From: Sphingomonadaceae bacterium
GTDB taxonomy: Bacteria > Chloroflexota > UBA6077
NCBI GenBank assembly: GCA_050261575.1
Contig: JBLNDL010000006.1
Coordinates: 1 to 62,589, forward strand
Reading direction: 5' to 3'
Length of the DNA stretch: 62,589 nt
This document shows, piece by piece, positions 8,877 through 34,230 of the stretch (the stretch's first letter is position 1; each line of letters opens with the position of its first letter). The notes under the pieces are model-generated. The model saw nothing but the letters and a program-made list of their open reading frames with translations. It was not told the origin of the DNA and did no database searches. Made by a program: the position numbers and the translations under genes.

Positions 8877-8924
8877 ACGGGGTGTAGCGCAGTTGGCAGC
8901 GCGCATGGTTTGGGACCATGAGGT
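8877..8924 (+). repeat. attL: 48-bp copy of the tRNA-Pro 5' portion
   Basis: Identical to 32090-32137. Confidence 0.95.
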
Positions 8925-11335: not shown

Positions 11336-11347
11336 AAGGTAGCGACC

Positions 11348-15978: not shown

Positions 15979-17217
15979 ATGACCGACAGCCAGGCACCGC
16001 TAGAAGGCCTGCCGATGGTGACAGACCCCACGCGGTCGCAGAGCGAGAACGTGGAGACGGTGATCTCTCGCCTCAACAGCGGGCGCATTATCATCCCAGA
16101 CTACCAGCGAGACGCCGACCAATGGGATGCCCGAAAAGAGTCTCTCTTCATCGAGTCAGTCCTCAACAATCTAACCGTGCCTGCCTTCTTCTTCTCCGAA
16201 AGGCCTGATGGCACGATCGAAGTCATTGATGGCCAACAGCGCTTGAACACGCTTTGGAAGTACTCCAAAAATGAACTCGCGATCAGTGACGAAGAAGACA
16301 TGGTCTATCTCAGCCCCCAGAGCGTCCACTACCGGGGCAAGAAGCTGTCTGACCTGCATCAACAACTCCAAGCAGTCTTTCATGACTACCCTTTGACGAT
16401 TATCTACTTGCCGCGCAACATCGACCTTTCCAGCAAGCTCGAAATCTTCCGTAGGATCAATGAGGGTGGCACCCCCCTCACCGCGCAGGATATACGCCTT
16501 GCCTACTACAGCCAGTCGCAGTCGGTGATGTTCGTCCGGCTTGCCGGCCTGCATGGTAGTACTCAGGCTGCATCTCGCATGCTTGCTTCAGCTGAGAGAC
16601 TCGGCGTCGCAAACCCATGGGTGTCGAATCCAGAGGCTTTTTCGTATTGGTGTGACTGGTGGGAAGGGAAGACAAAATCCCGCGGCCAGACACCCTCGGA
16701 GATGTTCCTGTGGTACGAGGTCACTCTCCATAGGAACGCTCTGGACAATCTCGTCAGTTCTCCAGATCAGATGAAGCACCTTCCCATTACATTCCGGGGA
16801 AGCACCGAGGAAGTCCTCGACATTTACTGTGCTCAGCTTCACTGGAGCGACGCCCACGGCGGACCGACGGTCTTCCCAACGTATGCAAGCGGATTGCAGG
16901 TCGAATTCAACACATATGCAAACTGGCTGAAGAGCATTCTGGCGCGCGGCATGGCTGGCCTAAGCGTGGACAAGTACAAACAAGCATCTCTCCTTGTGGC
17001 GGCTGCAACTGAGTTAGGCATATCTCCCGACCAAATCTCGGATGACGCCTGGGATGCGATTGCCGACTTCATCCGTACCCCCCGTAAGGCTGGGAGCATA
17101 TGGTTCAGTCAAGGATGGGCCGAGCAGAAGGGACGTTGGCGAGGGGAGAAGGGGCAGAAATCACAGTGTGATCAGGTTGTCGTACTGCTTCAGAAGATCC
17201 TGGACAAGTACTCTTGA
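15979..17217 (+). CDS. DUF262 (ParB-like, GmrS-like) protein
   Basis: PDYQR, IDGQQRL.TL, F.RIN.GG.PL; ATG after AGGAG. Confidence 0.9.
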   Translation: MTDSQAPLEGLPMVTDPTRSQSENVETVISRLNSGRIIIPDYQRDADQWDARKESLFIESVLNNLTVPAFFFSERPDGTIEVIDGQQRLNTLWKYSKNELAISDEEDMVYLSPQSVHYRGKKLSDLHQQLQAVFHDYPLTIIYLPRNIDLSSKLEIFRRINEGGTPLTAQDIRLAYYSQSQSVMFVRLAGLHGSTQAASRMLASAERLGVANPWVSNPEAFSYWCDWWEGKTKSRGQTPSEMFLWYEVTLHRNALDNLVSSPDQMKHLPITFRGSTEEVLDIYCAQLHWSDAHGGPTVFPTYASGLQVEFNTYANWLKSILARGMAGLSVDKYKQASLLVAAATELGISPDQISDDAWDAIADFIRTPRKAGSIWFSQGWAEQKGRWRGEKGQKSQCDQVVVLLQKILDKYS

Positions 17218-19154: not shown

Positions 19155-19780
19155 CTAGCTTTGATCTTGGGCTTTCGCCCGGCTGTCTGTCATGCAGCCC
19201 TGCGCTTCACGGCGTCCTCGGGGCTCTTGCCCAGGAGAACCCGGGCCAGCGCTTTGTGGCCGGCCGTGAGATACAGGCCCCGCCACCTGTCGGCCCACTC
19301 CTCGGCTTGGCGCTCACCGAGCCTGACCACGAGTTCGATCTTGAGCGTGCTCGCCAACTACTCAGATCAGTTGCGCATCATCCGGGCAACTTCCTCTTCA
19401 GCGAGCACACGCTGGACAGACTCCCCAAGAAGACTCAAGCGCCTTTCGCCCTAGAATCGGCTTGCGTGGTTCGGGCCGGGGATGGATACCTTGAGGGAGC
19501 TGCTGGGCGGCTTCGCCCGCGCTGAGGGTGACAATGGCGCGGTCGATGAATCGAGCCGTGCATGGGTAGCCGCAGCCGCCGCCGTAGTACGGTAGGCCCC
19601 ATAACGTCTGCCTTCTCCCGGGAAGGCCGCTGTGAATGTGTCACTTGCCTCCAAGTAGCGGTAGAAGCTCCGAACCCTTTGACTTACAATGAACTGTACG
19701 CCAATCGTCCCAGACCATCACCAGAAGAAGACACCGCCACGGGGCACCACACCCGATGGGATGTCTGTGGGGAGTTGCAG

Positions 19781-22700
19781 ATGAAATTGGTCGAGGACTA
19801 CCTCCATCAGCTACGGCTGATCCACGCCTCCCGAGCAGGAGTCCCAGAACTCTCCTATTACGTCCCACTCGCTGACCTGCTGAACGCCATCGGCAAGACT
19901 CTCAAGCCCAGGGTGCACTGCATCATCGCGCTGGCGAACCGCGGAGCCGGCTTTCCCGACGGCGGGCTCTTCACCTCAGATCAGCTTCAGGAGGTATCGG
20001 AGGCCGATACCTTTTCTGGGCAACTCCCGTCTCGTGGGGTAATCGAGATAAAGCCGCTGGCCGACGATACCTGGGCGACTGCCGAGGGAGAGCAAGTCAC
20101 TCGCTACTGGGGCGAGTACGGCCAGGTCCTAGTCACGAACTACTGGGATTTTGTGCTGGTTGGCCATGACGCCGACGGCAACCCTGCCAAGCTCGATACC
20201 TATCGGTTGGCCGAAAGCGAGGCCGAGTTCTGGGCTGCGGCTGCTCACCCTGGCAAGCTGGCCCAGCAGCACGCCGACAGCCTCGTGGAGTTCCTAACGC
20301 GAGTCATGCGTTCCGCAGCCCCACTGGGAACGCCTCAGGATGTCGCCTGGTTTCTCGCATCCTACGCCCGGGACGCCAAGACTCGCGTCGAAGCCGCTGA
20401 TCTCCCAGCCCTGTCCTCCATTCGCACTGCTCTTGAAGAGGCCCTGGGGATCAAGTTCGAAGGACCGAAAGGGGAGCATTTCTTTCGTTCAACCCTGGTG
20501 CAGACTCTGTTCTATGGAGTGTTCTCCGCATGGGTCATCTGGGCCAGGCAACCGGGACGCAAGCCTGGCGATCATTTTGACTGGAAGACGACCGCGTGGC
20601 ATCTGCGAGTGCCCATGATCCGGGCGCTCTTTGAGCAGGTCGGAACCCCTACCCAACTCGGGCCGCTGGGGCTGGTCGAGGTGCTTGATCGGACTGGGGA
20701 TGTTCTCAACCGCGTGAACCGGGACACTTTCTTCGCCCAGTTCGAGGACCAGCACGCCGTCCAGTACTTCTACGAACCGTTCCTGGCGGCGTACGACCCA
20801 AAGCTGCGCAAGGAGATGGGCGTCTGGTATACACCCAGAGAGATCGTCCAGTATCAGGTCGCCCGTGTAGATACTGTGCTTCGGGAGGAGCTGGGAGTCG
20901 AGGACGGGCTAGCCGACCCGAGCGTCTATGTGCTCGACCCCTGCTGTGGCACTGGAACGTACCTCGTAGAGGTGTTGAACACGATAGCCGGGACACTGAA
21001 GGCCAAAGGCTCCAACGGTCTCCTCGCTCACAGCCTGAAACGCGCAGTGATGGATCGTGTCATTGGCTTCGAGATACTTCCGGCTCCGTTCGTCGTCGCT
21101 CACCTACAGATGGGGCTACTCCTGCAGCAGAAGGGGGCGCCTCTCTCGGACTCTAAGAACGAGCGTGTCGGCGTATACCTCACCAACTCCCTCACAGGCT
21201 GGGAGCCGCCCGACCCCGAAAAGGAGAGGGTGATCCAACTCCATTTATCCGGCCTGCCCCAGCTGCAGGAGGAGCGAGACGCGGCTGAGAAGGTCAAGCG
21301 CAAGACGCCGATCCTGGTAATCCTCGGCAACCCGCCCTACAACGCCTTTGCTGGAGTCAGCCCCAAAGAGGAGCAGGGCCTGGTCGAACCGTACAAGGTT
21401 GGGCTATCCTCCATCTGGGGGATAAGGAAGTACAACCTGGACGATCTGTACATTCGATTCTTCCGCCTGGCCGAGCGACGAATAGCCGAGCAGGGCAAGC
21501 GGGGCATCGTTTCTTTTATCAGCAATTTCTCGTACCTTAACGACCCATCCTACGTGGTCATGAGACAGCGTTTCCTCTCCCAGTTCGACAAGATGTGGTT
21601 TGATTCGCTGAACGGCGATAGCAGGGAGACGGGCAAGCTCACACCGGATGGCGAGCCGGACCCCAGCGTGTTCTCGACGGACTACAACCGTGAGGGGATA
21701 CGGCTGGGCACTGCGGTCTCGGTGCTGGTGCGCAAGGCCGACCGTTCCGAGCAGCCAGAGGTCCTTTACCGCGAGTTCTGGGGTGTGAACAAACGCACCG
21801 ACCTGCTGGAAAGCCTGGGGCGCCCCAACCTCAACACTCAGTATGAGTCCCCAGAGCCCAGCAAGCGGAACCGACTTTCGTTCCGCCCCTGGCACGCAAC
21901 GACTGAGTACCTGTCGTGGCCGGCGGTCGTGGAACTCTGTGGTCAGCCGCCTGTGCCGGGACTCCAGGAAATGCGGCGTGGCGCCCTGATCGACATCGAC
22001 CCGGCCGCCCTAAGTAGCCGCATGGAGCAATACTACAAAGTGGACCTCGACTGGGAAGCGGTGAAGGCGCTGGGGGTGGGACCGACGGCGGATACCGAGT
22101 CCTTCGCAGCCAAGCCTGCCAGGGCAACGATCTTGGCGGCGGACAAGTTCGATCCGAATCGAGTGGTACGCTACGCGCTGTATCCCATGGACCGCCGCTG
22201 GTGCTATTACTCCCCAGTGTCTCCCCTCTGGAACAGGCCACGTCCGATGTTGGCGGCTCAGAACTGGACGGGCAACCGCTTCTTCGTCACTCGAATGGTC
22301 GCGGAGAGGCCGAAGGAGGGGGTCCCTGCAGTAGTCACCCGCGCACTGCCTGATTACCACCTCCTCCGGCCAAACGTGGAGGCCATCCCGATGCGTCTCC
22401 GCAACGGTTCCAGGCGAATGAGCAAAGCGAGCAAGCACCAGCTTCTCTTGCTCGACGATCTGGGCGAGATGGACACCACATCGACGGCCAACCTCTCGCC
22501 TCGCGCCCGGGCCTACCTCTCTGCGCTGGGCATAACCGATCCGGATGCGAGCCAGGAGAACGCAGAGCTGATCTGGATGCACGCCCTGGCGATCAACTAC
22601 TCCCCGGCCTATCTGGCGGAGAACTCGGACGGCGTCCGAGGGGACTGGCCCCGCATACCCTTGCCCGGCACCCGGGACACCCTGCTGGCCTCCGCCGCAC

Positions 22701-23314
22701 TGGGTCGACAACTGGCAGCCTTGCTCGATCCCGAGAGCCCTGTGACGGGTGTTACCGTCGGCTCGGTTCGCCCGGAGCTGAAGGTCATGGCCGGAATCGC
22801 TTCTGCCGATGGTAGGCCCCTGAACCCGGACACAGGAGACCTGGCAGTTACTGCCGGTTGGGGACATCCCGGACAGGACGGCATCGTGATGCCCGGCAGA
22901 GGGAAGACCGTCCTGCGAAGCTACGAAGCCGAGGAACTGGCTGCGATAGAGCTGGGTGCCGGACTCGTCGGCCTTGGCGTCGGGGAGGTTGCTCGCCGTC
23001 TCGGCGAAACCACGTATGACGTGTTCTTGAATGACCGGGCGTATTGGCGGAACGTGCCGGAGCGGGTGTGGGAGTACACCATCGGCGGATACCAGGTGGT
23101 GAAGAAGTGGCTCTCCTACCGGGAAAGCAAATTGCTCGGCCGTTCTCTCACCGCTTCTGAGGCCGGGGAGGTCACAAACATGGTTCGCCGGCTCGCGGCT
23201 GCCCTGCTGTTGGGCACTGCGCTCGATGCCAACTACCAAATGGCCAAGGAGGGTGCCTACGAATGGCCAGCGGAGGTGCCCGTCAGCCACCCTGTCTGGC
23301 CGGGACAGATGTAG
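19781..23314 (+). CDS. Type IIG/ISP-like restriction-modification enzyme (N6-adenine MTase, no helicase)
   Basis: N-terminal PD...EIK, YTP, LDPCCGTG, GNPPY, C-terminal IGGYQV.KKWLSYR specificity region. Confidence 0.88.
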   Translation: MKLVEDYLHQLRLIHASRAGVPELSYYVPLADLLNAIGKTLKPRVHCIIALANRGAGFPDGGLFTSDQLQEVSEADTFSGQLPSRGVIEIKPLADDTWATAEGEQVTRYWGEYGQVLVTNYWDFVLVGHDADGNPAKLDTYRLAESEAEFWAAAAHPGKLAQQHADSLVEFLTRVMRSAAPLGTPQDVAWFLASYARDAKTRVEAADLPALSSIRTALEEALGIKFEGPKGEHFFRSTLVQTLFYGVFSAWVIWARQPGRKPGDHFDWKTTAWHLRVPMIRALFEQVGTPTQLGPLGLVEVLDRTGDVLNRVNRDTFFAQFEDQHAVQYFYEPFLAAYDPKLRKEMGVWYTPREIVQYQVARVDTVLREELGVEDGLADPSVYVLDPCCGTGTYLVEVLNTIAGTLKAKGSNGLLAHSLKRAVMDRVIGFEILPAPFVVAHLQMGLLLQQKGAPLSDSKNERVGVYLTNSLTGWEPPDPEKERVIQLHLSGLPQLQEERDAAEKVKRKTPILVILGNPPYNAFAGVSPKEEQGLVEPYKVGLSSIWGIRKYNLDDLYIRFFRLAERRIAEQGKRGIVSFISNFSYLNDPSYVVMRQRFLSQFDKMWFDSLNGDSRETGKLTPDGEPDPSVFSTDYNREGIRLGTAVSVLVRKADRSEQPEVLYREFWGVNKRTDLLESLGRPNLNTQYESPEPSKRNRLSFRPWHATTEYLSWPAVVELCGQPPVPGLQEMRRGALIDIDPAALSSRMEQYYKVDLDWEAVKALGVGPTADTESFAAKPARATILAADKFDPNRVVRYALYPMDRRWCYYSPVSPLWNRPRPMLAAQNWTGNRFFVTRMVAERPKEGVPAVVTRALPDYHLLRPNVEAIPMRLRNGSRRMSKASKHQLLLLDDLGEMDTTSTANLSPRARAYLSALGITDPDASQENAELIWMHALAINYSPAYLAENSDGVRGDWPRIPLPGTRDTLLASAALGRQLAALLDPESPVTGVTVGSVRPELKVMAGIASADGRPLNPDTGDLAVTAGWGHPGQDGIVMPGRGKTVLRSYEAEELAAIELGAGLVGLGVGEVARRLGETTYDVFLNDRAYWRNVPERVWEYTIGGYQVVKKWLSYRESKLLGRSLTASEAGEVTNMVRRLAAALLLGTALDANYQMAKEGAYEWPAEVPVSHPVWPGQM

Positions 23315-23400
23315 ACACCGCTCGGGACATCGCAAGGAGCCCCGGGATGAGGATGCGAGCTGATGCGGCTTGAATGGAATGAGCGGATGAAGGTGAGGGA

Positions 23401-24114
23401 ATGATCAACCTGTGTGACCTGGCGCTCTCGTCCATGGTGTTCGACGGGCTCACTGGCTACACCTCGTCACTCTCCCGACTGGCCGAGGTCACCAACGGCA
23501 GAGTGGACCTCACCGATCAAACACACCGCATGGCTGTTCTGAAGTGGCTCAATGATTGGGGATGCAGGCACCTCTCCAAGGAGCAACACGAGACGGCGTC
23601 AGCGTCGCTCTGCACCTGGTACACGAATAGCGGCGCTAGTCTGTTTTCCGTGGACAGGCTCCTGTGGGACCTGACTGACGTGGAAATAGCGGCAGCGGCG
23701 TTCGCGTATGGCTCTCTGAAAGGCATGCCGGGAGCATGGCGCACGATTAATGGGCGCCGCTCGCCCTGGCTGATAGGACCGACGGCGGCCTCCAAGGTCC
23801 TGTTTGCCCTCCGTCCGCACGCGCTCCTGCCCTGGGATGATGCGATTCGGGACGGATTCGAGTGCGACGGGAGTGCCGAATCCTACCTCCGGTTCCTGCG
23901 GGAGATCCGCGAGCAGGCGAAGGGGACAGCCGGCGCGTGTGAAAAGATCGGCTTCGGCATCACCGGTTTGCCCAACGCGCTGGGCTGCCCCAACGCCACC
24001 GTGATAGAGTTGATCAACAAGTATCTGTGGATGAAGCACTCACGGGAGTGGAGTCCACCCACACCCGAGATCGTCGCGAGGTGGGCTGCCTGGGGCTCCG
24101 GGCAAGGAATCTGA
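23401..24114 (+). CDS. Hypothetical protein with GPTAASK.L...RP....WD motif (DUF6308-like)
   Basis: RBS GAGGGA; motif resemblance only. Confidence 0.55.
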   Translation: MINLCDLALSSMVFDGLTGYTSSLSRLAEVTNGRVDLTDQTHRMAVLKWLNDWGCRHLSKEQHETASASLCTWYTNSGASLFSVDRLLWDLTDVEIAAAAFAYGSLKGMPGAWRTINGRRSPWLIGPTAASKVLFALRPHALLPWDDAIRDGFECDGSAESYLRFLREIREQAKGTAGACEKIGFGITGLPNALGCPNATVIELINKYLWMKHSREWSPPTPEIVARWAAWGSGQGI

Positions 24115-24239
24115 CTCCGTCCGCGACACCAAGCAGCCATGCCAGATTATGTCTGGCTCTGGTTCTCGCTTCCCGATCAACTCTCCTCAGTCCGACCGAG
24201 CCCCTGCATTGCCTGGTGGCCGAACAGATTCGGCCAGTC

Positions 24240-25236
24240 TGTCGGTGACCGACCGAGACTATGCCGGCGGTCGCCGCCAGATGTAGGCCAAGCATAGCCG
24301 CCTGGGTGTAGGCCACCCATGATGGGTGGACATGGTGGCATCCTAGCGCGGTCGCGCGATGACCGCTGCTATCGGGGCAGCTACTTCACCCTGTGGCGGT
24401 TCGTGGCGAGACTACGGCCTCATGAGGCGGAGGTGCGGCCGAGTGTTGACCCTCGGCCAGGGCGCAACAGGCCCAGATGGACTTCGGCCCGTGGGGACCC
24501 CGGGACCTGGCCACGCGGAGAGCTCGCACCGCCTACACCTTCGTCATGGCCCGCTCCTTCAGCCGCTGCCAGTGTGCCGAGCTGGCCTTCGACCAGAAGC
24601 TGGCCACCTGCGCTTTGGCGGCCGGGCACGGCAACTTGCTGATTGTGGCCCCACGGGGTGAGCAAGGGCCGCCTGGCCAACGCCTTGGCCTTCAAGGCGA
24701 TCCGACGAGGCTGCGGGTTGATGGTGAGACCGACCAGCCGGCTGCTGGCCTCGCTGCACGATTCTCGGGCCGACGGCAGCCACGCTAGCAAGATGGCGAG
24801 GCTCGACCTCGTGGACTTCCTGGTGCCAGACGATTTCGGCCTGCGTCCCCTCTCCGTCCAGGCGGTGGGCGACCTCCACGACACCATCAGCCCTCGGTAC
24901 GGGAGTCGGCCGATGGCCACCACCTCCAACCGGGCGATGAAGGAGTGGGCCGGACTCCTTGGAAACGATCTCCTGGCCGGTGCTGCCCTAGACCGGCCGA
25001 CTCATTACACCCAGACCGCCATCATGCGAAGGCGCAGCTGCCGGCAACTGAGCCATCGAAAGGAGGTGGAGGGCCGAGGAAACAAGACACCGATGTGCGG
25101 GTTACAGGGCTCGAAAGGGTGCCCTCCCATCTGGTCCCTGAAGGCCGGAGAACTAGATTCCTGACGGCCCGCGGGTTCGATTGCGTGGCCTACACCCAGG
25201 CGGCCATGGACGGACTGCATCGGGCGGCTATTGACA
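24240..25236 (+). mobile_element. Internally deleted IS21-family element (istA/istB relics)
   Basis: TGTC...GACA ends; GCCGCCTGGGTGTAGGCCAC inverted at both ends; istA-like (GSY.TL.RF, DFG, FVM..SFSR) and istB-like (DDFG, TSNR..EW, A.LDR) fragments. Confidence 0.8.
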
Positions 25237-25728
25237 TCCATCATCAGTCAGACACGCTCCAAGACAGACACCGTGGAGCCCCCAGTTCAGTGGGGGCGGC
25301 GAGGCTGCGAAGCAGCCGACGCGGGGGTGGATCGGTATTCCGTTCTCCTCCAATACTCTCATCTATCTATCAATCTAAGAAAGAAAGATAGACACTATCA
25401 CCATCACCCTGGGAGGTGGCCAAGGCAACCACCCAAGGAGAGTCTCTGAGTGAATGAAGAGCAGAGGCCCTCCTGGGCCATGGGTCTCGGTGAACGCTGT
25501 CTTCCAAGAGCAACCGGTTACCACCCGAACGCCACGGGTGAGCAGCCAAAGCCGGCTTCTCCTTCTCTTCTCCCTCCATTCCCTGACAGTACCCATCCCC
25601 CATCTCTATCCCACGCCGACCTTGCCAGGGCTCCTCGTGCGCCCTGCTCTCAGTCTGAGAGTGCCAAAGTCATCAGGACGTTCTGCGCAAGACAGTAGGG
25701 AGGCGCATAAGAAAACTAGTAAAGCACC

Positions 25729-25756
25729 TTGACAAGGGAAGTCCGGACTGGATAAT
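25729..25756 (+). promoter_or_regulatory. Sigma70-type promoter of the second recombinase
   Basis: TTGACA-N16-GATAAT. Confidence 0.55.
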
Positions 25757-25911
25757 AGAGTAGGAGAAGAAGGATAGTAGGCTGCTATCCTGCATACTTG
25801 AGACTCACAGATTCCCCACTAGTTGCCGCTTTGGCAACTCCCCCGAACAATCCACCACTCTTTTCCACATTACCCTGTGCGACTCACGTTGACGAGGAGA
25901 GGAGAGTCTCT

Positions 25912-26787
25912 GTGTTCACGTTGCCCGCCGAGGTCGCGAGCCCTGCCAATCAGATCGACTCCGATGATCAGCTTGTAGCTCTCTGGCTGCGAGGCCGGAG
26001 CGAACACACCTTGCGGGCTTACCAGTCCGATGTGGGGCGGTTCATGGCGCACGTGGGGAAGCCTCTCCGAGACGTGACCCGAGAGGACCTGCAAGCCTTT
26101 GCCGACAGCCTGGCCGATCTGGCTCTCACCTCTAGGTACCGAGCCCTGGCAACGCTGAGGAGTCTCCTCGCCTTTGGGCATCGCATCGGCTACTTGGTCT
26201 CTGACGCTGGCCGGGACTTCTCTCTGCAGGTTCCTGAGCGTGGGCATCCTGAGCGGGAACTGAGCGAGGATGAGGTACACCACATACTGGCTCTGGAGCC
26301 GGACCGACGCAACCGCGCACTGCTGCGCCTTCTCTACGCCGCCGGCCTCCGGGTGTCGGAGGTGTGTGCTCTCACCTGGCGAGACCTGCAGCCCACGAGG
26401 GAGGGAGGACGGGTTACTGTACTGGAGAGGAATGGCGTCACCCGGGCGGTGTTGTTGCCCGCCTCTGTCTGGAACGACCTGTTAGCACTGCGCGGTGATG
26501 CCCCCCTCGACGCGCCCATGTTCAGATCCCAAAAGGGCGGCCACCTGAACGAGACCCAGGTGTTCCGCATTGTCCGCCAGGCGGCCAAGAGGGCGGGGAT
26601 CGAAGAGGCGTCCCCCTTCTCGCTTCGCCACGCCCACGCCAGCCACGCCCTGAGCAGGGGCGCTCCGCTCCAGCTCGTGCAGGCCACTCTCGGGCATACC
26701 TCCGCCGCTACCACGAGCCGCTATCTCCACGCCCTGCCCGAGGGAAGCTCGGCAATGCTTCTTTCCGTAGCAGAAGGTGCCCGGTAG
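25912..26787 (+). CDS. XerD-like tyrosine recombinase with altered catalytic residues
   Basis: SEHTLRAY, GLRVSE, LRHAHASHAL, TLGH, TTSRY. Confidence 0.88.
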   Translation: MFTLPAEVASPANQIDSDDQLVALWLRGRSEHTLRAYQSDVGRFMAHVGKPLRDVTREDLQAFADSLADLALTSRYRALATLRSLLAFGHRIGYLVSDAGRDFSLQVPERGHPERELSEDEVHHILALEPDRRNRALLRLLYAAGLRVSEVCALTWRDLQPTREGGRVTVLERNGVTRAVLLPASVWNDLLALRGDAPLDAPMFRSQKGGHLNETQVFRIVRQAAKRAGIEEASPFSLRHAHASHALSRGAPLQLVQATLGHTSAATTSRYLHALPEGSSAMLLSVAEGAR

Positions 26788-27268
26788 ACGCTTCGGAGCG
26801 GTGCGCTTGGGGTGGTCGGCTGTCCCTCTCTTGGAGCTGTGCCCAGGGACGCGAGGCTGCGGTCCTCTCAAGTCTCAACCTGTACCCTTTCTTTCGCTTT
26901 GTTGCCGAGAGTCAGAACTTGGGACACACCAACGGCCGAACCCAGAGAAGCAACGCCGACAGGGCAAGACACCTGTCCTCCCCCACACACCTCCTCTTCC
27001 TGCCTCGCTCAACCTTGAGACACCTGCCTGGTAGGCGGGTAGACCCCCCGGTGCCTTCCATTTCCGAACAATGCGCTCGCGGAGGGTACCCATCCAGACG
27101 GACAAGAAAACGGTTCTTCGACTCCCAATTTGAGATTTCAACACCGCTGGTCGGTCGGTGCGCGCCGGGACTGAAGGAGGAGAACACATCGCCGGCGGTG
27201 TGATAGGCAGCCACCAACACCGGGCAGAGCGCAACCTGCCCAGACTCATTTCGTAAGGAGAGCAAACA

Positions 27269-28078
27269 GTGTCTGCAGAAGACGACGCCCGCAGGCGAAG
27301 GGAGGAATGGGAAGCGGCCGGCAGACCCGACTACAACAACCTGATTACCGACTCCTCGGGCAACATCATTGGCTACCACAGCGTAGACGAGACCCCACCG
27401 GCGCTTCGCTCGGAGTCCAACGCTGGCTATCCCTACACGGAGACGGACTGGACCAGAAACACCTTCCTTGACTACTTCCGCCAGATGGCCCAGAAGTCCA
27501 CGTCTAGCAACTACTCTGGAGCCAACATGAGTTCCACGAACCCCAACGATCCCTTCAAAGGCATAGCCGGGGCTGCTTTCTTCAACCCCTTCGACCCCGA
27601 CTCCTACACCCGGGGCTGGGGCAAGACGTTGCAGGCCGGCGGGATCAACCCCCTGGCCAACACCCCCTTCGTCAACTACCTCTCCAGCATGGCCGCGCCG
27701 CTGGCATCCAACTACCTGCTGCGGGCCGTCCTGGAAGGCAACGCCACCCCCGCCTCGCTGGTGGGCGGGCTCCAGGAAGCCTACAGGAACGCGGGGCTGG
27801 GCGGGCTGTACGCCGGGGACGCCCTGGCGAGCCTGAAGAACCTGGTCGGCCAGTACTACGGCGGCCAGCTCTCCAACGGCATGCAGATGGCCCTGCTCGG
27901 CAACATGGCCGAGAGCCCCAACTACATGATGCAGGTCCTGGGCAACGCCCTGGGCGGCGGGCTCTCGGGCGCGGCAAGGGGCATCGCCAACTATCTGCAG
28001 CGGCTCTACGGCCAGTGGAACCTGCAGGACACCGACGTACCCTGGCTCCAGTACTTCTTCGACAACTTCGTCAGGTAG
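27269..28078 (+). CDS. Hypothetical Gly/Asn/Ala-rich protein, phage internal-virion-like
   Basis: AAGGAG RBS and strong GC3 bias support a real gene; function inferred from composition only. Confidence 0.7.
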   Translation: MSAEDDARRRREEWEAAGRPDYNNLITDSSGNIIGYHSVDETPPALRSESNAGYPYTETDWTRNTFLDYFRQMAQKSTSSNYSGANMSSTNPNDPFKGIAGAAFFNPFDPDSYTRGWGKTLQAGGINPLANTPFVNYLSSMAAPLASNYLLRAVLEGNATPASLVGGLQEAYRNAGLGGLYAGDALASLKNLVGQYYGGQLSNGMQMALLGNMAESPNYMMQVLGNALGGGLSGAARGIANYLQRLYGQWNLQDTDVPWLQYFFDNFVR

Positions 28079-28087
28079 AGGTGAAGC

Positions 28088-29020
28088 ATGCCTGTGTATG
28101 ACGATGCTATTCGACGGGCCACCGGCGTCTGGAGCTCTCTCTTCCCCCAGGAGAGCCAGACCCCCCACAACCGGTTCACCAGCTTCCTGGGCTACCTCGG
28201 CGGGGGGCGGACGGAGCCTCTGTCTCAGTTCTTCCCCGACTACGATCCGAGGGTGGGCATGAGCAGCCTCTTCCCGGACTACGGCTCCCGCAAGGGGATG
28301 TCGGAGCTCTCCCCTCTCTACGGTTCTCAAGGGGGAATGAGGAGCCTCTTTCCTACTGGCGACTTGGGAGGCTCGCTGCGCGACCTCTTCCCAGACTATG
28401 GGATCGGTGCAAGGTTGGAGAGCCTGTTCCCGGCGATCAGCCCCTTCCATCGCTCCAGTAGGCCCGCCGCGCAAACCGGCAACCAGGCGTCCTCTACCAG
28501 CTCCAGCGCTCCGGCTGTAAACTCGGATATCCAGTCCGTTCAGCCCGGCCCCACTGGGTACGCCTTCCCCGTGGTGAACTACTCTGGCCAGGTGGTGATG
28601 CATTGGAGCCAGGACACTGGGGGGTCCGACCTCTTCGCTCCCCTGGGTACCCCCGTGGTGGCCGCACGGGGCGGCCACGTCATCTCTGCCGGCTATGACG
28701 ACGTTGGTGGCAACTACGTCCTGATCCAGGGCGACGACGGCCTCAAGTACTACTACGCCCACCTCAAGGACGCCCCCTCCGTGAAGACGGGCCAGCAGGT
28801 GAGGGCCGGTGCACGTATAGGTTCGGTGGGCGACACCGGAAATGCCAAGGGCGTCGGCCCCCACCTCCACATCGGTATCGGCCACACCATCCTTCCCGGC
28901 GCCAACGCCCAGGGTGGCATGGGTCGGGGAGGTGTCAACGCAATTGAGCTTCTCCGCGCTGTCCTGGCAGGCCGTCCGATCCCCGGGCTCGTTACCCCTA
29001 AGGAGATGGCTTCCCACTGA
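28088..29020 (+). CDS. M23-family peptidase with N-terminal 13-aa repeats
   Basis: D.FAP.GTPVVA..GG, YYYAHL, VGDTGNA..VGPHLH. Confidence 0.85.
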   Translation: MPVYDDAIRRATGVWSSLFPQESQTPHNRFTSFLGYLGGGRTEPLSQFFPDYDPRVGMSSLFPDYGSRKGMSELSPLYGSQGGMRSLFPTGDLGGSLRDLFPDYGIGARLESLFPAISPFHRSSRPAAQTGNQASSTSSSAPAVNSDIQSVQPGPTGYAFPVVNYSGQVVMHWSQDTGGSDLFAPLGTPVVAARGGHVISAGYDDVGGNYVLIQGDDGLKYYYAHLKDAPSVKTGQQVRAGARIGSVGDTGNAKGVGPHLHIGIGHTILPGANAQGGMGRGGVNAIELLRAVLAGRPIPGLVTPKEMASH

Positions 29021-31101
29021 TGGCTGGTTTCGACTTTCTTGAGTACCTCCAGAAGGGCAACCCTGTTACCCCCGCCATCGGGCACACGCTGGACGAGTAC
29101 GACGAGAACGTGGTCAACCGCCTGGCCGGTGGGCTGCTCTACCAGGCGGCCCTGAACAACCTCTTCGCACCCTTCGGCGGCGAGGACACGAGGCAGGCCA
29201 TGGTCCGAGCTTTCGAGACAGGCGGACACTCGGCAACCATGAAGGAGTACCGGACCCGGGAGGGAGGTGCCAAGAGCTTTGCCCTCCAGCTCCTCCTGGA
29301 CCCTTTGAACCTTCTCCCTGTCGCGAAGGCTCCCAAAGCCCTGATCCAGACGGGTAAGCTGGCGACAGTCGCCGAGAGGGTCCCGGGACTGGCCCAGGCA
29401 GCGGAGGGGCTGTATCGCGGAGCCAACATCGGCGACAGGGTGATGGCCGCGCCGGTTGCGGTGCCGATAAGAGGGATTGGGGCTGTTAGGGGTAGGATCG
29501 GTCAGCCAGCCGTCTTGAAGGCCTCCAGTCGCACGCCAGAACAGGGAGCCTCGGCTGTACCCAGGCCCCCCACCTCGGTTGCTCGCCAACCCACCACTCG
29601 CTCTGCCGCTCGCCCCGCACTCGAATCAAGCGCGGGGTCCCAAACGCCCCCAGGAGAGAGGGTTGGACTGCTGGAGTTCCTTGGTGACCTGACGCAGTAT
29701 ACACCCGAAGAGTTGAGGCGACGGGCGGCCGAGTGGGACGAACTCGACAAGAAGTGGCTGATGGCAGGGGGCCGTGAGAAGTGGCCCCATCTGGACACAG
29801 GCATGCCCGTCTCCTACTTCTTCTTTCGGCAGATGGCTCCCTGGGAGCGCCACGTCAGCGAATGGCTTGCACGCCAGCCGGAGATACCGCGCCATCCGGC
29901 TGTTCCAACGCAGGGGCTGAGGCAGGAGATTCCCGCCAAGCCCCTGCTGGTGGACCCCTACGGCACGCTGCCTCCTGCAGTGCATCAGGAAATGGCCCAG
30001 TCCAACTACGTGCAGATCCTGGGCACCTGGCTCCACCGGGCGCACGACATGCTGGCCGATGCCGTTCCCAAGACCTCTCTCTTGCGGGACTACAGGTCCA
30101 ATCCCAGCCACTTCGGGGGATTGGAGGCCAGCGTGGAACGGGCAGGGGTGAACGCGGGACGGGTGAACCTTCGGACCCGCAGGGAGTACAACAGCATCTT
30201 CGTGAGCCCGTGGGGCTCCTTTGGGGATGCCCTTGCCCGGCAGGTGCCCGATGTGGCGCAGGCGGATCTGTCGAAGGTGAACAGGGCGGTTTTGGCCAGG
30301 GACATGGCCGAGGACATGGTGTACACGCTCCTACACGAGCTTGTCCACAATACCTATCGGATGGAGGACGGGCCTTTCGCCCAGGCTCTCCGGGCGGTTG
30401 TTCGTGAGCTGAGGCCCGTCAAGCGGGATCTCACCGCCGAGCTGGACGGCTACCTGCAGGGCGTTGTGGACAAGGAGATGGAACCGCTCTACACTCATTA
30501 CCGGACGGTTCGGGGCGCTGGACCGTCCGACATGGGGGACTACCTTGGAGAGGGGTATGCGGCACAATTCTACAGTGAGCGGGAAATTGCGCGACGAGGA
30601 GCGGGCGGAGGCGGAGAAGGCGGGCTTCTACCTACTGAAGGCGGCCATGTATCCCCGTCCCCAGGCACCACACGTGGATTTGCCGGCCCTGAGGGGCTAC
30701 TCCAAGGGGCTTCTGGAGGAGGGGTTGGACGCTCGCCGGATCTACAACGAGGCACGAGAGCTGACCATTCGAGTTGGCAGGCCGGCCCCGCCAACGTGGG
30801 AGGAGTTGTGGGGGGAACTGCCCCCTCCCTCCGGGCAGTAGCCCAACCGACCTCGGCACCGAACTGGGTCACCCTCCAGCGTTCCAGGGATGTCGCGACA
30901 GAGAGGTCTCTCGCACCCTCGCCCGCCAAGGCGCAGCTACAGACGGCTAGGCAGCAGGCACTCCTCCGCCGCTGGCAGAACGCTGCGCCTGAGGTGCAGG
31001 AGCGGATGTGGAAGAACCCGGAGGTGCGTGAGGCGGTCATGCAGAATCTATCAAGAGAGCTTGCCCGGATACGTCAGGGTGACGCGCCTTGGGGCAAGTA
31101 G
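29020..31101 (+). CDS. Large hypothetical protein with HExxH zincin motif, phage internal or polyvalent-like
   Basis: LLHELVH and LLLDPLNLL motifs; start overlaps the upstream stop. Confidence 0.7.
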   Translation: MAGFDFLEYLQKGNPVTPAIGHTLDEYDENVVNRLAGGLLYQAALNNLFAPFGGEDTRQAMVRAFETGGHSATMKEYRTREGGAKSFALQLLLDPLNLLPVAKAPKALIQTGKLATVAERVPGLAQAAEGLYRGANIGDRVMAAPVAVPIRGIGAVRGRIGQPAVLKASSRTPEQGASAVPRPPTSVARQPTTRSAARPALESSAGSQTPPGERVGLLEFLGDLTQYTPEELRRRAAEWDELDKKWLMAGGREKWPHLDTGMPVSYFFFRQMAPWERHVSEWLARQPEIPRHPAVPTQGLRQEIPAKPLLVDPYGTLPPAVHQEMAQSNYVQILGTWLHRAHDMLADAVPKTSLLRDYRSNPSHFGGLEASVERAGVNAGRVNLRTRREYNSIFVSPWGSFGDALARQVPDVAQADLSKVNRAVLARDMAEDMVYTLLHELVHNTYRMEDGPFAQALRAVVRELRPVKRDLTAELDGYLQGVVDKEMEPLYTHYRTVRGAGPSDMGDYLGEGYAAQFYSEREIARRGAGGGGEGGLLPTEGGHVSPSPGTTRGFAGPEGLLQGASGGGVGRSPDLQRGTRADHSSWQAGPANVGGVVGGTAPSLRAVAQPTSAPNWVTLQRSRDVATERSLAPSPAKAQLQTARQQALLRRWQNAAPEVQERMWKNPEVREAVMQNLSRELARIRQGDAPWGK

Positions 31102-31105
31102 CACG

Positions 31106-31141
31106 CGGGGCCAGGCAACAACCTGGCCCCGTTTCTTTTCT
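31106..31141 (+). terminator. Intrinsic terminator closing the three-gene module
   Basis: CGGGGCCAGG-CAACAA-CCTGGCCCCG-TTTCTTTT. Confidence 0.85.
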
Positions 31142-31521
31142 GCGGGGAGATCGCTGACCCTACAACTGAACCATAGACATCGTTCTGTGTGTTGAGTAAG
31201 CCAGCCATGACTGCTCCTGTCTGCACGCAGCAGGCCGCGCGGATGTTGACAGCCCGGCCTACTTGCCGCAGACTGTGGCCGCAATCGAATACATGGCTAT
31301 CCAGAGCGGCGCACTCGCGTCCGGCAACCTGGCGGCGACCGCCAAGGTGCCCGTCCTCAGTCTGAGGAGATAGGCCCGATGAGGGAACCAACGGTCGCGC
31401 ACCCCGCCCGCGCGCGGGTCTTTTCGTTTGCGCCGTCTTCTACGGCTCATGTTGCAAGGCCGGGGGTGTGGGCGAGCGCAGGGTCGTATCGGACGGAAGC
31501 GCCTTGTTGAGCGGGAGAGGC

Positions 31522-31938
31522 ATGTCCGTGACCAGTGAAGACGAGTCCGACGCGGTAACGGTAGTCACTTACGGCGGGGAGAGGTGGCTGGCCAAGGTGA
31601 GAGTGTGCAAGACCTGCGGGAGGCACAGGGGAGCTATGTACAGCCATACCAACAGTACGAGACCCATCACCTGCCTCTGTGATGGGCGACCGTGCCCCGT
31701 ATGCGGCAAGAACAGGCTGCCCAAGCCAGGCACCGAGGTCATGGATGGACACGGCAGGATATGGCATATCCCCTGGTTCCGCGGCATGGGCGGCTGTCCC
31801 GAGTGCGCCGCCAAGCGTCCAACCGTCAAGACCTACGACGAGGTGTTGATGTCGGGCGCCGGGGACGGAGACACCATAAGGTGGCTGGAGGAGCTGTTCG
31901 TTCTGGAAGAGCCGAAGGGGCCATACAGCGAAGGCTAG
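31522..31938 (+). CDS. Cys-rich zinc-finger-like hypothetical protein
   Basis: CKTC, CLC, CPVC, CPEC; GGAGAGG RBS. Confidence 0.6.
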   Translation: MSVTSEDESDAVTVVTYGGERWLAKVRVCKTCGRHRGAMYSHTNSTRPITCLCDGRPCPVCGKNRLPKPGTEVMDGHGRIWHIPWFRGMGGCPECAAKRPTVKTYDEVLMSGAGDGDTIRWLEELFVLEEPKGPYSEG

Positions 31939-32011
31939 GCGTCACCAGGAAGATGAGGGGGTGCACGTTGTGCCTCTGGAGCCGATTTCCTTAGCCGATG
32001 CGCGCCGAAAA

Positions 32012-32020
32012 TGGTATAAT
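32012..32020 (+). promoter_or_regulatory. Extended -10 promoter inside the element, upstream of tRNA-Pro
   Basis: TGGTATAAT, 70 nt before the tRNA. Confidence 0.6.
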
Positions 32021-32090
32021 GACCTTGCATGGTTCTTTGCCGACACTGCGGCGACCTGCGTCTCATAGTTCCGCAGAGCGGCTGACTATA

Positions 32091-32166
32091 CGGGGTGTAG
32101 CGCAGTTGGCAGCGCGCATGGTTTGGGACCATGAGGTCCCCGGTTCGAGTCCGGGCACCCCGACCA
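32091..32166 (+). tRNA. tRNA-Pro(TGG); attR overlaps 32090-32137
   Basis: 76-nt cloverleaf, TGG anticodon, GGTTCGAGTCC T arm, encoded CCA. Confidence 0.98.
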
Positions 32167-32301
32167 TGTCTGGTGGTCCCCGGCCGCCTCGGAGTTCTGC
32201 CGGTCCGCGCCCCCGTCCATTCCTGAGTTGTCCCAACCCCCACTCCTCGCTTTCCCGATCCAATACATTGACATGCTTCGATATAGTGGTATCCTGGTAG
32301 C

Positions 32302-32634
32302 ATGAAGCGAATCGGCATCGAGAAGCTGAACGACGGGTGCTGCGAGCGGCCGGGACCGCCGGGCGAATCCAGGTTCCCAAACCTGGACGAGGGCGCGAGG
32401 CTATTCCGAGCACTCGGCGACGAGACCCGCCTGAGCATCGTCAGGCGCCTCGCCGAGGAGGGCGAGTTGTGCGCCTGCGACCTGATCTGCTGCGACCTCG
32501 CCCAGCCCACCATCTCCCACCATCTGAAGGTGCTGCGCGAGGCGGGGATCGTCAACGCAGAGAAGCGTGGCCTCTGGGTCCACTACTCCCTCAACCGAGA
32601 AAGGCTCCGGGAGCTGCGGTCGTGGCTCCCGTAG
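32302..32634 (+). CDS. ArsR/SmtB-family repressor
   Basis: FRALGDETRL, ELCACDL, QPTISHHLKVL; TTGACA promoter with dyad upstream. Confidence 0.92.
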   Translation: MKRIGIEKLNDGCCERPGPPGESRFPNLDEGARLFRALGDETRLSIVRRLAEEGELCACDLICCDLAQPTISHHLKVLREAGIVNAEKRGLWVHYSLNRERLRELRSWLP

Positions 32635-32920
32635 ATGCGCCGGAACATTCCTGCGCTCCTCGCCCTCCATCTCCAGGCAAGCATCGCGTCAGCGCCGCAC
32701 CCTAGCGTGGCACCCTCCAGCGAGCCTCGCCCTCGTGAACCATGCCTCAGGGCGGAGCCGGGGCACGTGGTGTGCCGTACCACGCTCCACCCCGGCGAAG
32801 GGTCGAGGGCCCGAGTCCGAGCTTCGACCGGCCACCGGGGTGCCGCGACGGCTGGCCGAGTCCGCGCAGGCTCGGCCTCTCGGGGTCCGCGGAGTCGAGT
32901 CGACACGTGGAGGTGCAAAG

Positions 32921-33088
32921 ATGCATCGAGGGATGATGAGACCGCCGGGTTACCCGCTGATCCCGTTCCTGTTCCCAATCGGTGTCGTCCTCAGCCTGAT
33001 CGGGATGACGGCGTGGTTCAGCTATCTGAGCTACAGGGAGTTGAACGCGATCCGCCGGGCAGAGGAGTCGCACCACCCGGGGACGTGA
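32921..33088 (+). CDS. Small single-TM membrane protein
   Basis: GGAGG RBS, 55 aa with one hydrophobic helix. Confidence 0.55.
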   Translation: MHRGMMRPPGYPLIPFLFPIGVVLSLIGMTAWFSYLSYRELNAIRRAEESHHPGT

Positions 33089-33468
33089 TGGCGCGGGTTC
33101 TTTGAGGGCACAGTTCCTCGGAGTGCGGCGCTTGAGCGCCGCACTCGCCTGCATGCTAGAGTTCGGTGCACACGCACGCCGTTCTCCTGCCGTGCGCACG
33201 CTTCCGTCTGCAGGAGGTGGCGCCGGCAGCGGGGGTGGTCACCCTCGAACGCCAGGCAGGTGTGGTATCGCTCGGCACCAGGGTCGCGGCCGCGCTTGGG
33301 AGCGGACGGGCGGCCTGCATCCCCACCGGCCATCTCGACGGTGGCACTCTTCTTGAAACAGAGCGCTGCCTGCCGCGGGCAGGTACGCCTCGAACGGGAC
33401 GCCGGGGCTCGTCCCCCCGCCCGCCGCGGCGTACTCGGATCGACGACCTGTCTTCAAGGAGTGAGTGA

Positions 33469-34230
33469 ATGCCTACGACGCCTGTGACCGACTGGGGTGC
33501 GGCGATCATGACTTCCATCGCCGGGGCGCTGGCCATCTTCCTCGGCGCCATTCCGAGGATCATCGGCTTCTTGGCCATTCTGATCATCGGCTGGTTAATC
33601 GCCTCGGCCATCGCCGCCGCCGTGGCTGGAATCCTCCGAGCTGTCCACTTCAACGATCTGGCGCGCCGGTCGGGTTTCAGCGGTTTCGTGGAGAACATGG
33701 GCATCCGGCGCGACGCCTCCGGCGTGATCGCCGAGGTGGCCAAGTGGTTCGTTAGGCTGATCGTGCTGGTGGTGGCCTTCGACGCGCTGGGGCTGCCCGC
33801 CGTATCTCAGGTTCTGCAGCAGTTGCTGCTCTGGCTGCCGAACCTGGTCGTGGCCCTCGTGGTGCTGGTGGTTGCCGGACTCGCCGCCAACGCGCTCTAC
33901 AGTCTGGTGCGAGGATCCACCGCCCAGGCCGGCTTTGGGAATCCCGAGTTGCTCGGGAACATCGCTCGCATCGCCGTGTGGGCCTTCGGCATCATCGTGG
34001 CGGTCAATCAACTGGGGATCGCGGCGAACCTAATCAACATCCTGTTCCTGGCCGTAGTCGGAGCGATAGCCCTGGCCTTTGGCCTGGCCTTTGGCCTGGG
34101 CGGCAGGGAGACCGCTGCACGGATGGTCCAAGAATGGTACGAGTCGGGCCGCAAGGTAGCCCCAAAGGCGAAGCAAGCGGCTGAGGAGGCCCGTCGAGAG
34201 GCCGAAGAGGGTGGGCGTCGAGCCGCGTAG
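33469..34230 (+). CDS. TM-helix repeat protein (MscS/CmpX-related)
   Basis: Two P..(I/L)...L..L repeats, LAFGLAFGLGGR. Confidence 0.85.
   Translation: MPTTPVTDWGAAIMTSIAGALAIFLGAIPRIIGFLAILIIGWLIASAIAAAVAGILRAVHFNDLARRSGFSGFVENMGIRRDASGVIAEVAKWFVRLIVLVVAFDALGLPAVSQVLQQLLLWLPNLVVALVVLVVAGLAANALYSLVRGSTAQAGFGNPELLGNIARIAVWAFGIIVAVNQLGIAANLINILFLAVVGAIALAFGLAFGLGGRETAARMVQEWYESGRKVAPKAKQAAEEARREAEEGGRRAA

Follow-up and report, generated by a model that had tools for sequence, protein, structure and literature searches.

An intact three-gene cassette in a Chloroflexota tRNA-Pro island, probably stranded from the internal-protein block of a tailed-phage lineage

We analysed a window of 62,589 nt from a Sphingomonadaceae bacterium (Chloroflexota, lineage UBA6077; assembly GCA_050261575.1, contig JBLNDL010000006.1), which makes up all of contig C6 in a genome of 3.72 Mb and 103 contigs. 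At the tRNA-proximal end of an island beside a tRNA-Pro gene, the window carries three adjacent open reading frames (ORFs), here ORF1, ORF2 and ORF3, which an initial annotation had likened to phage DNA-ejection proteins. We conclude that this trio is probably a stranded cassette of internal or polyvalent proteins from a lineage of tailed phages infecting Chloroflexota, and that its genes are still intact and probably still expressible. Since the trio could not by itself build or load a particle, and no complete prophage of its lineage was found in the host genome (a metagenome-assembled genome, MAG, that is 100% complete), the cassette is most likely a prophage remnant. The trio and its terminator are as follows.

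27269-28078, plus strand: ORF1, 269 amino acids (aa), GTG start
28088-29020, plus strand: ORF2, 310 aa, with an M23 domain at 28619-28879
29020-31101, plus strand: ORF3, 693 aa, ATG at 29020
31105-31141, plus strand: intrinsic-terminator-like hairpin and T-run, beginning 4 nt past the ORF3 stop codon

All three ORFs are intact, and together they encode 1272 aa. A gap of 9 nt separates ORF1 from ORF2, while ORF2 and ORF3 overlap by 1 nt (stop codon TGA at 29018-29020, ATG at 29020). Each start is preceded by a Shine-Dalgarno-like site (AAGGAG for ORF1 and ORF3, GAGGTGA for ORF2). The terminator-like hairpin, at 31105-31132, has a stem of 11 pairs (9 G-C) and a loop of 6 nt, and is followed by TTCTTTTCTG. 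The G+C content of third codon positions (GC3) is 0.89 in ORF1, 0.79 in ORF2 and 0.73 in ORF3. An antisense frame of 701 aa opposite ORF1 and ORF2 (26912-29017, minus strand) has a GC3 of 0.61 and no homologue, and was rejected as a high-GC artefact. Because ORF1 and ORF3 have homologues and the GC3 of ORF1-ORF3, 0.73-0.89, stands against 0.61 in the antisense frame, we regard the three as real genes rather than chance ORFs of high-GC DNA. The largest mean over 19 residues on the Kyte-Doolittle scale, a crude test, is 0.93 for ORF1, 1.09 for ORF2 and 1.11 for ORF3, and these windows, used without a dedicated predictor, give no sign of a signal peptide or membrane segment.

In its description of the trio, the initial annotation was accurate. 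The three coupled, intact ORFs with their own terminator were recovered with the same coordinates, gap, overlap and hairpin; the first protein, said to be rich in Gly, Asn and Ala, contains 11.2% Gly, 11.2% Ala and 8.9% Asn; the second is an M23 peptidase (PF01551) in which, by the same hydropathy windows, no stretch exceeds 1.09, as expected of a protein said to have no signal peptide; and the DPLNL and HExxH motifs of the third lie at residues 94-98 and 439-443 (HELVH). Likewise, Pfam and PHROG scans and tblastn agree with its statement that no capsid, portal, terminase, tail or conjugation gene is recognisable in the island.

Residues 178-264 of ORF2 match Peptidase_M23 (PF01551) with an E value of 1.7e-23 and 83.1 bits against a cut-off of 28.7, and an M23 scan of the whole genome places the same domain at 28619-28882. 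The zinc-binding and catalytic signature of M23 peptidases comprises HxxxD and HxH, and both motifs are intact in ORF2, as HWSQD at residue 172 and HLH at residue 259. The C-terminal part of ORF2 is a bona fide LytM-type peptidoglycan endopeptidase domain by sequence, with a putative activity. It matches 28 PHROG families (best phrog_6700, E 9.8e-19, and phrog_10030, E 1.3e-17), and, with its catalytic motifs present, resembles virion-associated phage M23 hydrolases, annotated in PHROGs as endolysin, tape measure, minor head protein or metallo-endopeptidase. These matches are, however, limited to the domain: the N-terminal 165 aa of ORF2 have no family match in the libraries. This part contains six [LF]FP sites, at residues 18, 48, 61, 87, 100 and 113, several of them in SLFPDYG-like contexts, and no tandem DNA repeats were found beneath these short peptide repeats. 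Elsewhere in the host genome, contig C87 carries a separate, stronger M23 gene.

Relatives of ORF3 were sought by an exhaustive HMMER search of 1.84 billion representative proteins at E <= 0.001. The family comprises seven proteins including ORF3, and five of the six relatives are 2.1-3.6 times longer than ORF3. The relatives, with their best E values and the segments they have in common with ORF3, and the three segments of ORF3 itself are as follows.

P0002: 1468 aa, E 2e-127; N-domain, HExxH module and C-tail
P0003: 1659 aa, E 7.5e-27; N-domain and C-tail
P0004: 1829 aa, E 3e-17; N-domain and C-tail
P0005: 2493 aa, E 1e-14; N-domain and C-tail
P0006: 635 aa, E 9e-14; N-domain
P0007: 1794 aa, E 1e-7; HExxH module only
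29032-29514, plus strand: ORF3 N-terminal family domain (N-domain), residues 5-165, common to P0002-P0006, containing the DPLNL motif
29656-30831, plus strand: ORF3 HExxH module, residues ~213-604, with HELVH at 30334-30348
30892-31080, plus strand: ORF3 C-terminal family tail (C-tail), residues ~625-687, common to P0002-P0005

ORF3 is thus made of three family segments, one of which has a putative activity. N-domain matches among the relatives reach E 1e-34 to 1e-21. Residues 213-604 are 53% identical to P0002, and residues 310-567 match P0007. Within the HExxH module, HE..HN is kept in all three homologues (ORF3, P0002 and P0007), and 10-11 residues past the first His stands either an acidic residue or another His. 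Matches to WLM at this site are weak and all fall under the 26-bit cut-off (E 0.085 in ORF3, 0.0024 in P0002 and 0.0027 in P0007); besides this sub-threshold match, the family libraries returned nothing for ORF3. What ORF3 lacks is a core of ~650 aa (the FAFHFWATRN.PFY region), the best-conserved region among P0002-P0005, and tblastn did not find this core in any frame of the window. P0006 is also core-less, and its end looks tail-like in the alignment, with a match to the C-tail that is not significant (E 2.3).

Beyond these relatives, ORF3 is rare. It was found neither elsewhere in its own genome nor in 60 relatives of the host (1 of 61 genomes), and no second member of the giant family was found in the host genome. 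At 1e-3, tblastn with ORF3 returned nothing from 50,697 phage records and 72,556 plasmids, and P0004 had no match among the phage records. A word-index protein search in the 381-1213 aa band retrieved ORF3 alone. Pattern scans of IMG/VR with P0002, ORF3, A1, A2, P0006 and P0005 gave no confirmed relative, and those of GTDB species representatives with A1 and A2 gave none; since a profile search of whole genomes, described below, did find relatives, the GTDB pattern scans were too narrow. In the PDB, sequence and profile searches with ORF3, A2, A1 and A5 returned no match better than E 0.4. In the ESM Atlas, the best feature score for ORF3 was 0.83, a value that shuffled proteins reach, and the model (predicted local distance difference test, pLDDT, 0.47) had only structural matches with template-modelling (TM) scores <0.4.

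Short ORFs also match part of the giant family. In four genomes of the host's order, stand-alone ORFs of ~240-310 aa give profile matches to one middle module of the giants ('GDLHM...GWHA.YD', profile positions ~400-670), so modules of the giant family also circulate as single genes. Their positions, by genome and contig, are:

G013, contig C134, 21124-21717
G021, contig C2, 245623-246144
G033, contig C287, 6600-7181
G030, contig C246, 2296-2769

The genomic setting of giant relatives could be read in five cases: a phage contig (L002) from a metagenome scan, Chloroflexota prophages G001, G274 and G330 from a profile search of 401 Chloroflexota genomes, and prophage G036 from 66 genomes of the class. 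Their gene orders, with protein lengths in aa, are as follows.

L002, phage contig: TerL, 634 (portal position), 2248 (giant), 214, capsid; a glucosaminidase is encoded five genes upstream of the giant
G001 (locus L019), prophage at tRNA-Lys in the host's own family: TerL, 649, 284, 232, 3890 (giant), 226, SU10-type capsid
G274 (L020) and G330 (L021), one genus: TerL, 643, 388, 241, 396 (SLT+M23), 2214 (giant), 253, capsid
G036 (L046), another family of the order: TerL, 600, 310, 392 (SLT/M23-like), 2351 (giant), 228, capsid

In all five contexts, the giant sits between genes at the portal and scaffold positions, the latter adjoining the capsid gene. The portal-position proteins are homologous to one another (E 1e-54 to 1e-83), as are the scaffold-position proteins (E 1e-7 to 1e-14), and this homology across all five contexts indicates a single phage lineage; the portal label itself reflects gene position and one weak PHROG match (E 6.7e-4). 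The capsid gene of G001 is of SU10 type (E 4.5e-73). The N-domain profile weakly matches the G330, G274 and L002 giants, at an internal position. The cargo of the giants varies: that of G001 has a DarB-like methyltransferase-helicase insert (phrog_10089, E 0), P0007 carries HATPase and HExxH modules, and G274 carries DUF3293 or a SAM-lyase-like module. None of the shared segments, namely the N-domain, the ~650-aa core and the C-tail, matches a Pfam LPD or MuF family, and the family libraries contain none of them.

In three of the five contexts (G274, G330 and G036), a gene for an SLT+M23 protein immediately precedes the giant gene or stands a short way upstream of it. The M23 domain of ORF2 matches the SLT+M23 proteins upstream of the G274 and G330 giants at E ~1e-11 and the SLT/M23-like protein of G036 at E 3e-6 (BLASTP). 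Unlike ORF2, these prophage proteins have an SLT transglycosylase domain as well.

ORF1 has zero matches in Pfam, PHROG, NCBIfam and PADLOC. Its closest homologue is P0009 (270 aa), with 43% identity across 99% of the length, and a profile of the two (A2) retrieves the 284-aa gene of G001 with E 2.5e-7. This gene lies directly after the portal-position gene of the prophage, and its product matches P0009 with E 1e-18, with similarity at both ends. The N-terminal ~55 aa are kept in all four aligned sequences of the family. The same profile also retrieves a 200-aa ORF on contig C42, where the host genome carries a second island. The family is very small: it is present in 2 of 401 genomes of the phylum, and a word-index protein search with ORF1 listed three proteins. 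Structure was uninformative, the best ESM Atlas feature score being 0.81, as shuffled proteins reach, and the model having a pLDDT of 0.42 and only structural matches of TM <0.4.

Because ORF1 matches the 284-aa G001 protein, the M23 domain of ORF2 the SLT+M23 proteins, and ORF3 the giants, all three genes are represented in the portal-to-scaffold block of this phage lineage, where their counterparts follow the same order.

The trio and this block also share a near-absence of cysteine. ORF1, ORF2 and ORF3 are each cysteine-free (0 in 1272 aa), and there is none in the 9878 aa of P0002-P0007. Portal-to-scaffold blocks contain none in G274 (3492 aa) or G036 (3281 aa), and the giants of G001 (3890 aa) and G330 (2267 aa) contain one and two, respectively. 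For comparison, TerL proteins have 1-6 cysteines, capsid proteins 1-5 and portal-position proteins 0-4; six neighbouring host or island proteins have 2-9 and a seventh, a 253-aa MscS-like protein, has 0. Such depletion would fit proteins that travel unfolded through the portal, and a search of the literature on cysteine depletion in ejection proteins found no supporting paper. A nearly cysteine-free block could serve as a marker for head-internal proteins of uncultured phages.

Iyer, Burroughs, Anand, de Souza and Aravind (2017, J Bacteriol; PMC5512222) describe phage polyvalent proteins as encoded with portal or terminase genes and probably packaged, with zincin peptidase as their commonest domain, and read copies without such surroundings (the 'third context') as remnants, possibly defensive. 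Like the phage-type polyvalent proteins P1 DarB/DdrB and the N4 virion RNA polymerase, the relatives of ORF3 are giant, composed of many modules and encoded beside portal and terminase genes, and they include a HExxH zincin-like module and variable cargo. ORF3 itself does not lie beside portal, terminase or virion genes, whereas all five readable relatives do; lacking a phage context that its relatives have, ORF3 fits the third context of Iyer et al. It is also short, with one recognisable cargo module, whereas its relatives clearly combine disparate modules. Neighbours of ORF3 in a protein language model (LPD23 and LPD5/LPD1/MuF_C clusters), at 0.77-0.83, are a lead rather than a match.

The trio also recalls the ejection sets of short-tailed phages (T7 gp14/gp15/gp16, P22 gp7/gp20/gp16 and SU10 gp20-24), which are likewise adjacent genes of rising size, one of them muralytic. 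SU10 heads are described in PMC9509320 as holding five ejection proteins, one muralytic, and the G001 relative has a capsid protein of SU10 type. According to PMC8954989, it is mostly size and synteny by which ejection proteins have been matched, and these proteins are partly unfolded as they go through the portal, those of T7 type refolding afterwards; passage in an unfolded state would be expected for the proteins of this lineage too. Ejection sets lie in the structural module, as do the prophage counterparts (in G274, G330 and G036, and by order in G001), whereas the trio keeps the order only. Furthermore, at least one member of an ejection set has a membrane-inserting segment, and none is predicted in the trio by crude hydropathy; the sets carry a transglycosylase at the N terminus of their largest protein, whereas the trio has an M23 endopeptidase on a separate protein. 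No internal-virion or ejection family was matched by ORF1 or ORF3 in PHROG and Pfam, or by ORF2 among the matches listed (25 of 28 PHROGs). Unlike ejection sets, the block of this lineage lies between portal and scaffold positions. MuF-type head proteins are usually encoded between portal and scaffold.

In intact relatives, the genes between the portal and scaffold positions encode a small protein rich in Gly, Ala and Gln, an enzyme that hydrolyses peptidoglycan, and a polyvalent giant built of many modules. In the mechanism that we propose, such internal proteins of the parent phage, made late, would be loaded into the procapsid and would leave through the portal alongside the DNA. The M23 enzyme may then cleave peptide cross-links of the wall, and the giant may deliver cargo, such as the DarB-like methyltransferase-helicase or the zincin-like peptidase, that acts at the start of infection. 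ORF3 may have become core-less through an in-frame internal deletion or by descent from a core-less paralogue, and in its present place the trio would presumably be without function.

Several points weigh against a stranded remnant. The trio is intact and coupled, with ribosome-binding sites and catalytic motifs, while the adjacent insertion sequence (IS) has decayed; at least 35 kb of the parent phage would have to be gone without trace, and selection fits such preservation as well as recency does. ORF3 keeps both family ends in frame, and since P0006 is a second core-less member, making two of seven proteins short, core-less forms may be a genuine variant rather than decay. The synteny has its own gaps. 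The five contexts read do not include those of P0002-P0007, the closest relatives of ORF3, or of P0009. The order of M23 gene then giant occurs in two independent lineages only, G274 and G330 being one genus; at the hydrolase position, G001 has the 232-aa gene, which is without assignment, and L002 has instead its distant glucosaminidase. L002 also carries a BppU_N domain, known from long-tailed phages. ORF1 is tied to the prophage block by one genome, G001. A link to the 241-aa protein of G274 was not reproducible: in a set of 58 proteins it matched the A6 profile at E 4.3e-4, and among 1,330 six-frame ORFs it was not recovered. With hhalign, ORF1 and the 241-aa protein of G274 and G330 aligned at a probability of 3.5%, over a 19-residue NP(F/Y)DP motif. 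Finally, sequence searches found no similarity to a characterised ejection protein or MuF, and the internal proteins of this lineage are presumed to be packaged in virions.

Set against the initial annotation, the likeness to a phage ejection trio stands insofar as homology, synteny and motifs point to phage internal proteins, and falls short in that no sequence matches an ejection family. Its ranking of the trio as the strongest candidate here for an undescribed system is not upheld, given the longer relatives, the phage or prophage nature of every readable context and the missing core of ORF3. It had named longer homologues in prophages as the sign of a deletion remnant; this expectation largely holds, the homologues being longer (five of six relatives by 2.1-3.6 times, and up to 3890 aa in genomes), and the short P0006 and the intact trio do not follow that pattern. 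Stranded phage internal or polyvalent genes are a known phenomenon, so the value of the result lies mainly in annotating three nameless genes. A by-product is an undescribed lineage of Chloroflexota phages whose genes between the portal and scaffold positions encode a modular protein of 2200-3900 aa alongside a wall hydrolase and a small protein.

The island that contains the trio spans 23.2 kb and is integrated within the 5′ half of tRNA-Pro; it is bounded by a direct repeat (D1) whose two copies are 100% identical. Its features outside the trio are as follows.

8877-8924, plus strand: left attachment (att) repeat, a 48-nt exact copy of the tRNA-Pro 5′ part; left edge of the island
9059-10030: int1, a Xer-like recombinase at the left end of the island
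10871-11866: two tandem HNH_3 genes with a 40-nt DNA repeat, 78% identical
13689-14501: DUF4145 protein, paired with a DUF4062 protein at 14585-15643
15790-17217: GmrSD/NsnA-like nuclease, PADLOC match
19562-23314: Type ISP/IIG restriction-modification fusion, 1250 aa, PADLOC match (Type IIG/ISP)
24643-25164, plus strand: IstB/DnaC-like fragment, a 173-aa ORF matching phrog_3277 (DnaC-like helicase loader, E 5.6e-13)
25798-26787, plus strand: int2, a Xer-like tyrosine recombinase of 329 aa (Phage_integrase E 1.9e-27, Phage_int_SAM_1 E 6.3e-10)
32090-32137, plus strand: right attachment repeat, within the intact tRNA-Pro(TGG) gene at 32091-32166; right edge of the island

An AAA_25 replication-type ATPase gene follows the HNH_3 genes, and a DDE transposase lies between the nuclease and the restriction-modification fusion. 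After this fusion come a 237-aa ORF of unknown kind, the IstB/DnaC-like fragment, int2, the trio, a riboswitch with a 156-aa ORF, and the tRNA gene. The IstB/DnaC-like fragment is probably a remnant of an IS21-type element, in a gene-poor stretch between the defence part and int2, where no intact gene was recognised in 24115-25797. The int2 gene, 481 nt upstream of ORF1, has a promoter-like site at 25729-25756 upstream of it; its product is 30% identical to int1, and its matches to XerA/XerD-type NCBIfam models are below the cut-offs. With up to three mismatches allowed, the 38-nt att core has two matches in the window against 0 expected, and no third copy was found between the island halves.

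A Pfam scan of 15 large ORFs and further ORF scans recognised no capsid, portal, terminase or tail family, and library scans of the window ORFs recognised no conjugation family in the island. When 58 prophage proteins, the phage-contig proteins and the family members were compared with the window by tblastn, no TerL, portal, scaffold, capsid or core remnant appeared at E <= 1, apart from weak, scattered matches elsewhere (E >= 0.017) that we read as chance.

Soil metagenomes suggest that the island is a strain-variable element. Over 23000-33500, the k-mer depth of island contigs against the chromosome flanking tRNA-Pro on the right was 3.7-7.2 against 33 in run X1, 2.6-5.3 against 14.9 in X2 and ~3-5 against 7.8 in X4, values that are suggestive only, contig k-mer depth not being the share of cells. 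In public soil metagenomes, the contigs end at the att site, with breaks at 32137 or 32182. In run X3, from a second study, depth was ~2 throughout, and short pieces of the trio were identical to the window. No excision junction was found among the contigs of the four soil runs.

The initial annotation had also offered roles in which the trio acts on a phage, and nothing was found in support of the satellite or decoy role that it named. Taking all forms together, it seems to us unlikely, if worth setting out, that the trio acts in trans on a related phage. One form, a miniaturised internal-protein set in which ORF3 contributes two procapsid-targeting ends and a peptidase module, and ORF1 and the M23 protein act as loading or entry partners, is a doubtful proposition; if it were true, the set would enter the heads of a related phage on infection or induction, as the island particles' own entry kit or to poison progeny, and P0006, as an independent core-less member, would point to a recurrent strategy rather than decay. 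More doubtful still is that the island is a satellite that moves in the capsids of a related helper, loading its own small set through the N-domain and C-tail. The attachment repeats, two recombinases and AAA_25 ATPase, the intact and coupled trio, the family termini retained by ORF3 and P0006 around a missing core, the lower island depth in three soil runs with contigs breaking at the att site (again not a measure of the share of cells), and the family-bearing prophage G001 in the host's family would suit such an element. P4-like elements, phage-inducible chromosomal islands (PICI) and PLE combine an integrase and a replication module of their own with genes that divert helper packaging or alter capsid size; this island has integrases and its ATPase, but no small terminase, capsid, capsid-size or packaging-redirection gene was recognised here. 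A complete helper of the lineage was not found in the 100%-complete MAG, and the island is mostly defence cargo and IS debris. We know of no satellite with ejection proteins of its own. We attach similarly little probability to a defensive decoy, in which core-less ORF3 and its partners would compete with a phage giant for portal loading and cause a dominant-negative defect in progeny. ORF3 keeps its presumed targeting ends without the most conserved part, the neighbours are the restriction-modification fusion, the GmrSD/NsnA-like nuclease and the DUF4145/DUF4062 pair, and defensive use of context-less polyvalent proteins is raised as a possibility by Iyer et al. (PMC5512222). A defence-gene neighbourhood is weak evidence, however; ORF1, ORF2 and ORF3 match 0 PADLOC families (PADLOC-DB 2.0), no regulatory link to infection was found, and there is no recurrence (ORF1 family in 2 of 401 phylum genomes, ORF3 in 1 of 61 relatives). 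Were the trio nevertheless loaded into particles of a related phage, the island would be exploiting or blocking that phage in a new way.

Uses unconnected with phages are less probable again. A cytoplasmic or released wall hydrolase serving the host as toxin, autolysin or remodelling enzyme, with a metallopeptidase partner, is very improbable, even though the M23 motifs are intact, the HExxH is kept in three of three module homologues and the trio, closed by its terminator, looks like an operon of its own. With no signal peptide or membrane segment evident, the M23 domain would have no visible route to the wall; moreover, no immunity-like gene was found, the genome has the stronger M23 gene on C87, and every relative of ORF1 or ORF3 with a known context is phage-borne. 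Least credible of all is that the trio belongs to an apparatus for conjugation or other DNA transfer. Transfer systems are accompanied by wall hydrolases. Zincin-peptidase polyvalent proteins are, according to PMC5512222, commonest in conjugative elements. Yet library scans recognised no relaxase, coupling protein, VirB4-type ATPase or ArdC-N in the island, there is no plasmid match at E 1e-3, and the relatives sit in phage head modules. A stranded phage cassette is what the surroundings resemble: a lone block of phage genes with a recombinase and an IS fragment next to it, within att bounds, in a genome with several other phage fragments, recalls decayed tRNA islands and cryptic prophage remnants. 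Unusually for an old remnant, the trio shows no frameshift or truncation except the missing core of ORF3.

The other phage material in the host genome consists of scattered pieces, on contigs C4, C12, C19 and C42. Contig C4 (locus L023; 6.3 kb, 69% GC) carries TerL, portal, structural-protein and phrog_212 capsid genes and no giant. At C12:22104-23320, the N- and C-terminal halves of a TerL lie in different frames, and C19:18430-19254 gives an HK97-type capsid match within a 457-aa frame. The first 20,000 nt of C42 (C42:1-20000, locus L029) form the second island, which adjoins tRNA-Glu. It encodes a primase-helicase of 649 aa (phrog_6088, E 4e-144) and a tail-spike-like protein of 808 aa, as well as part of an int2-like recombinase; neither a terminase nor a capsid gene was recognised in it. 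Its 200-aa protein has the N-terminal ~55 residues of ORF1 and an apparently hydrophobic tail at its end.

Between the trio and the tRNA gene, the island contains a SAM-I/IV (S-adenosylmethionine) riboswitch aptamer at 31292-31401 on the plus strand (RF01725, 47.3 bits, above the gathering score of 41.1), directly followed by a terminator-like hairpin and T-run at 31403-31418. The riboswitch stem also accounts for a 15-nt inverted match of 24266-24280 with 31329-31343, which lies within it and which we attribute to chance. Downstream of the riboswitch lies the 156-aa ORF (31468-31938), which has eight Cys in CxxC-type pairs and no library match; such a Cys-rich protein is an odd target for a SAM riboswitch, and the island is an odd place for one.

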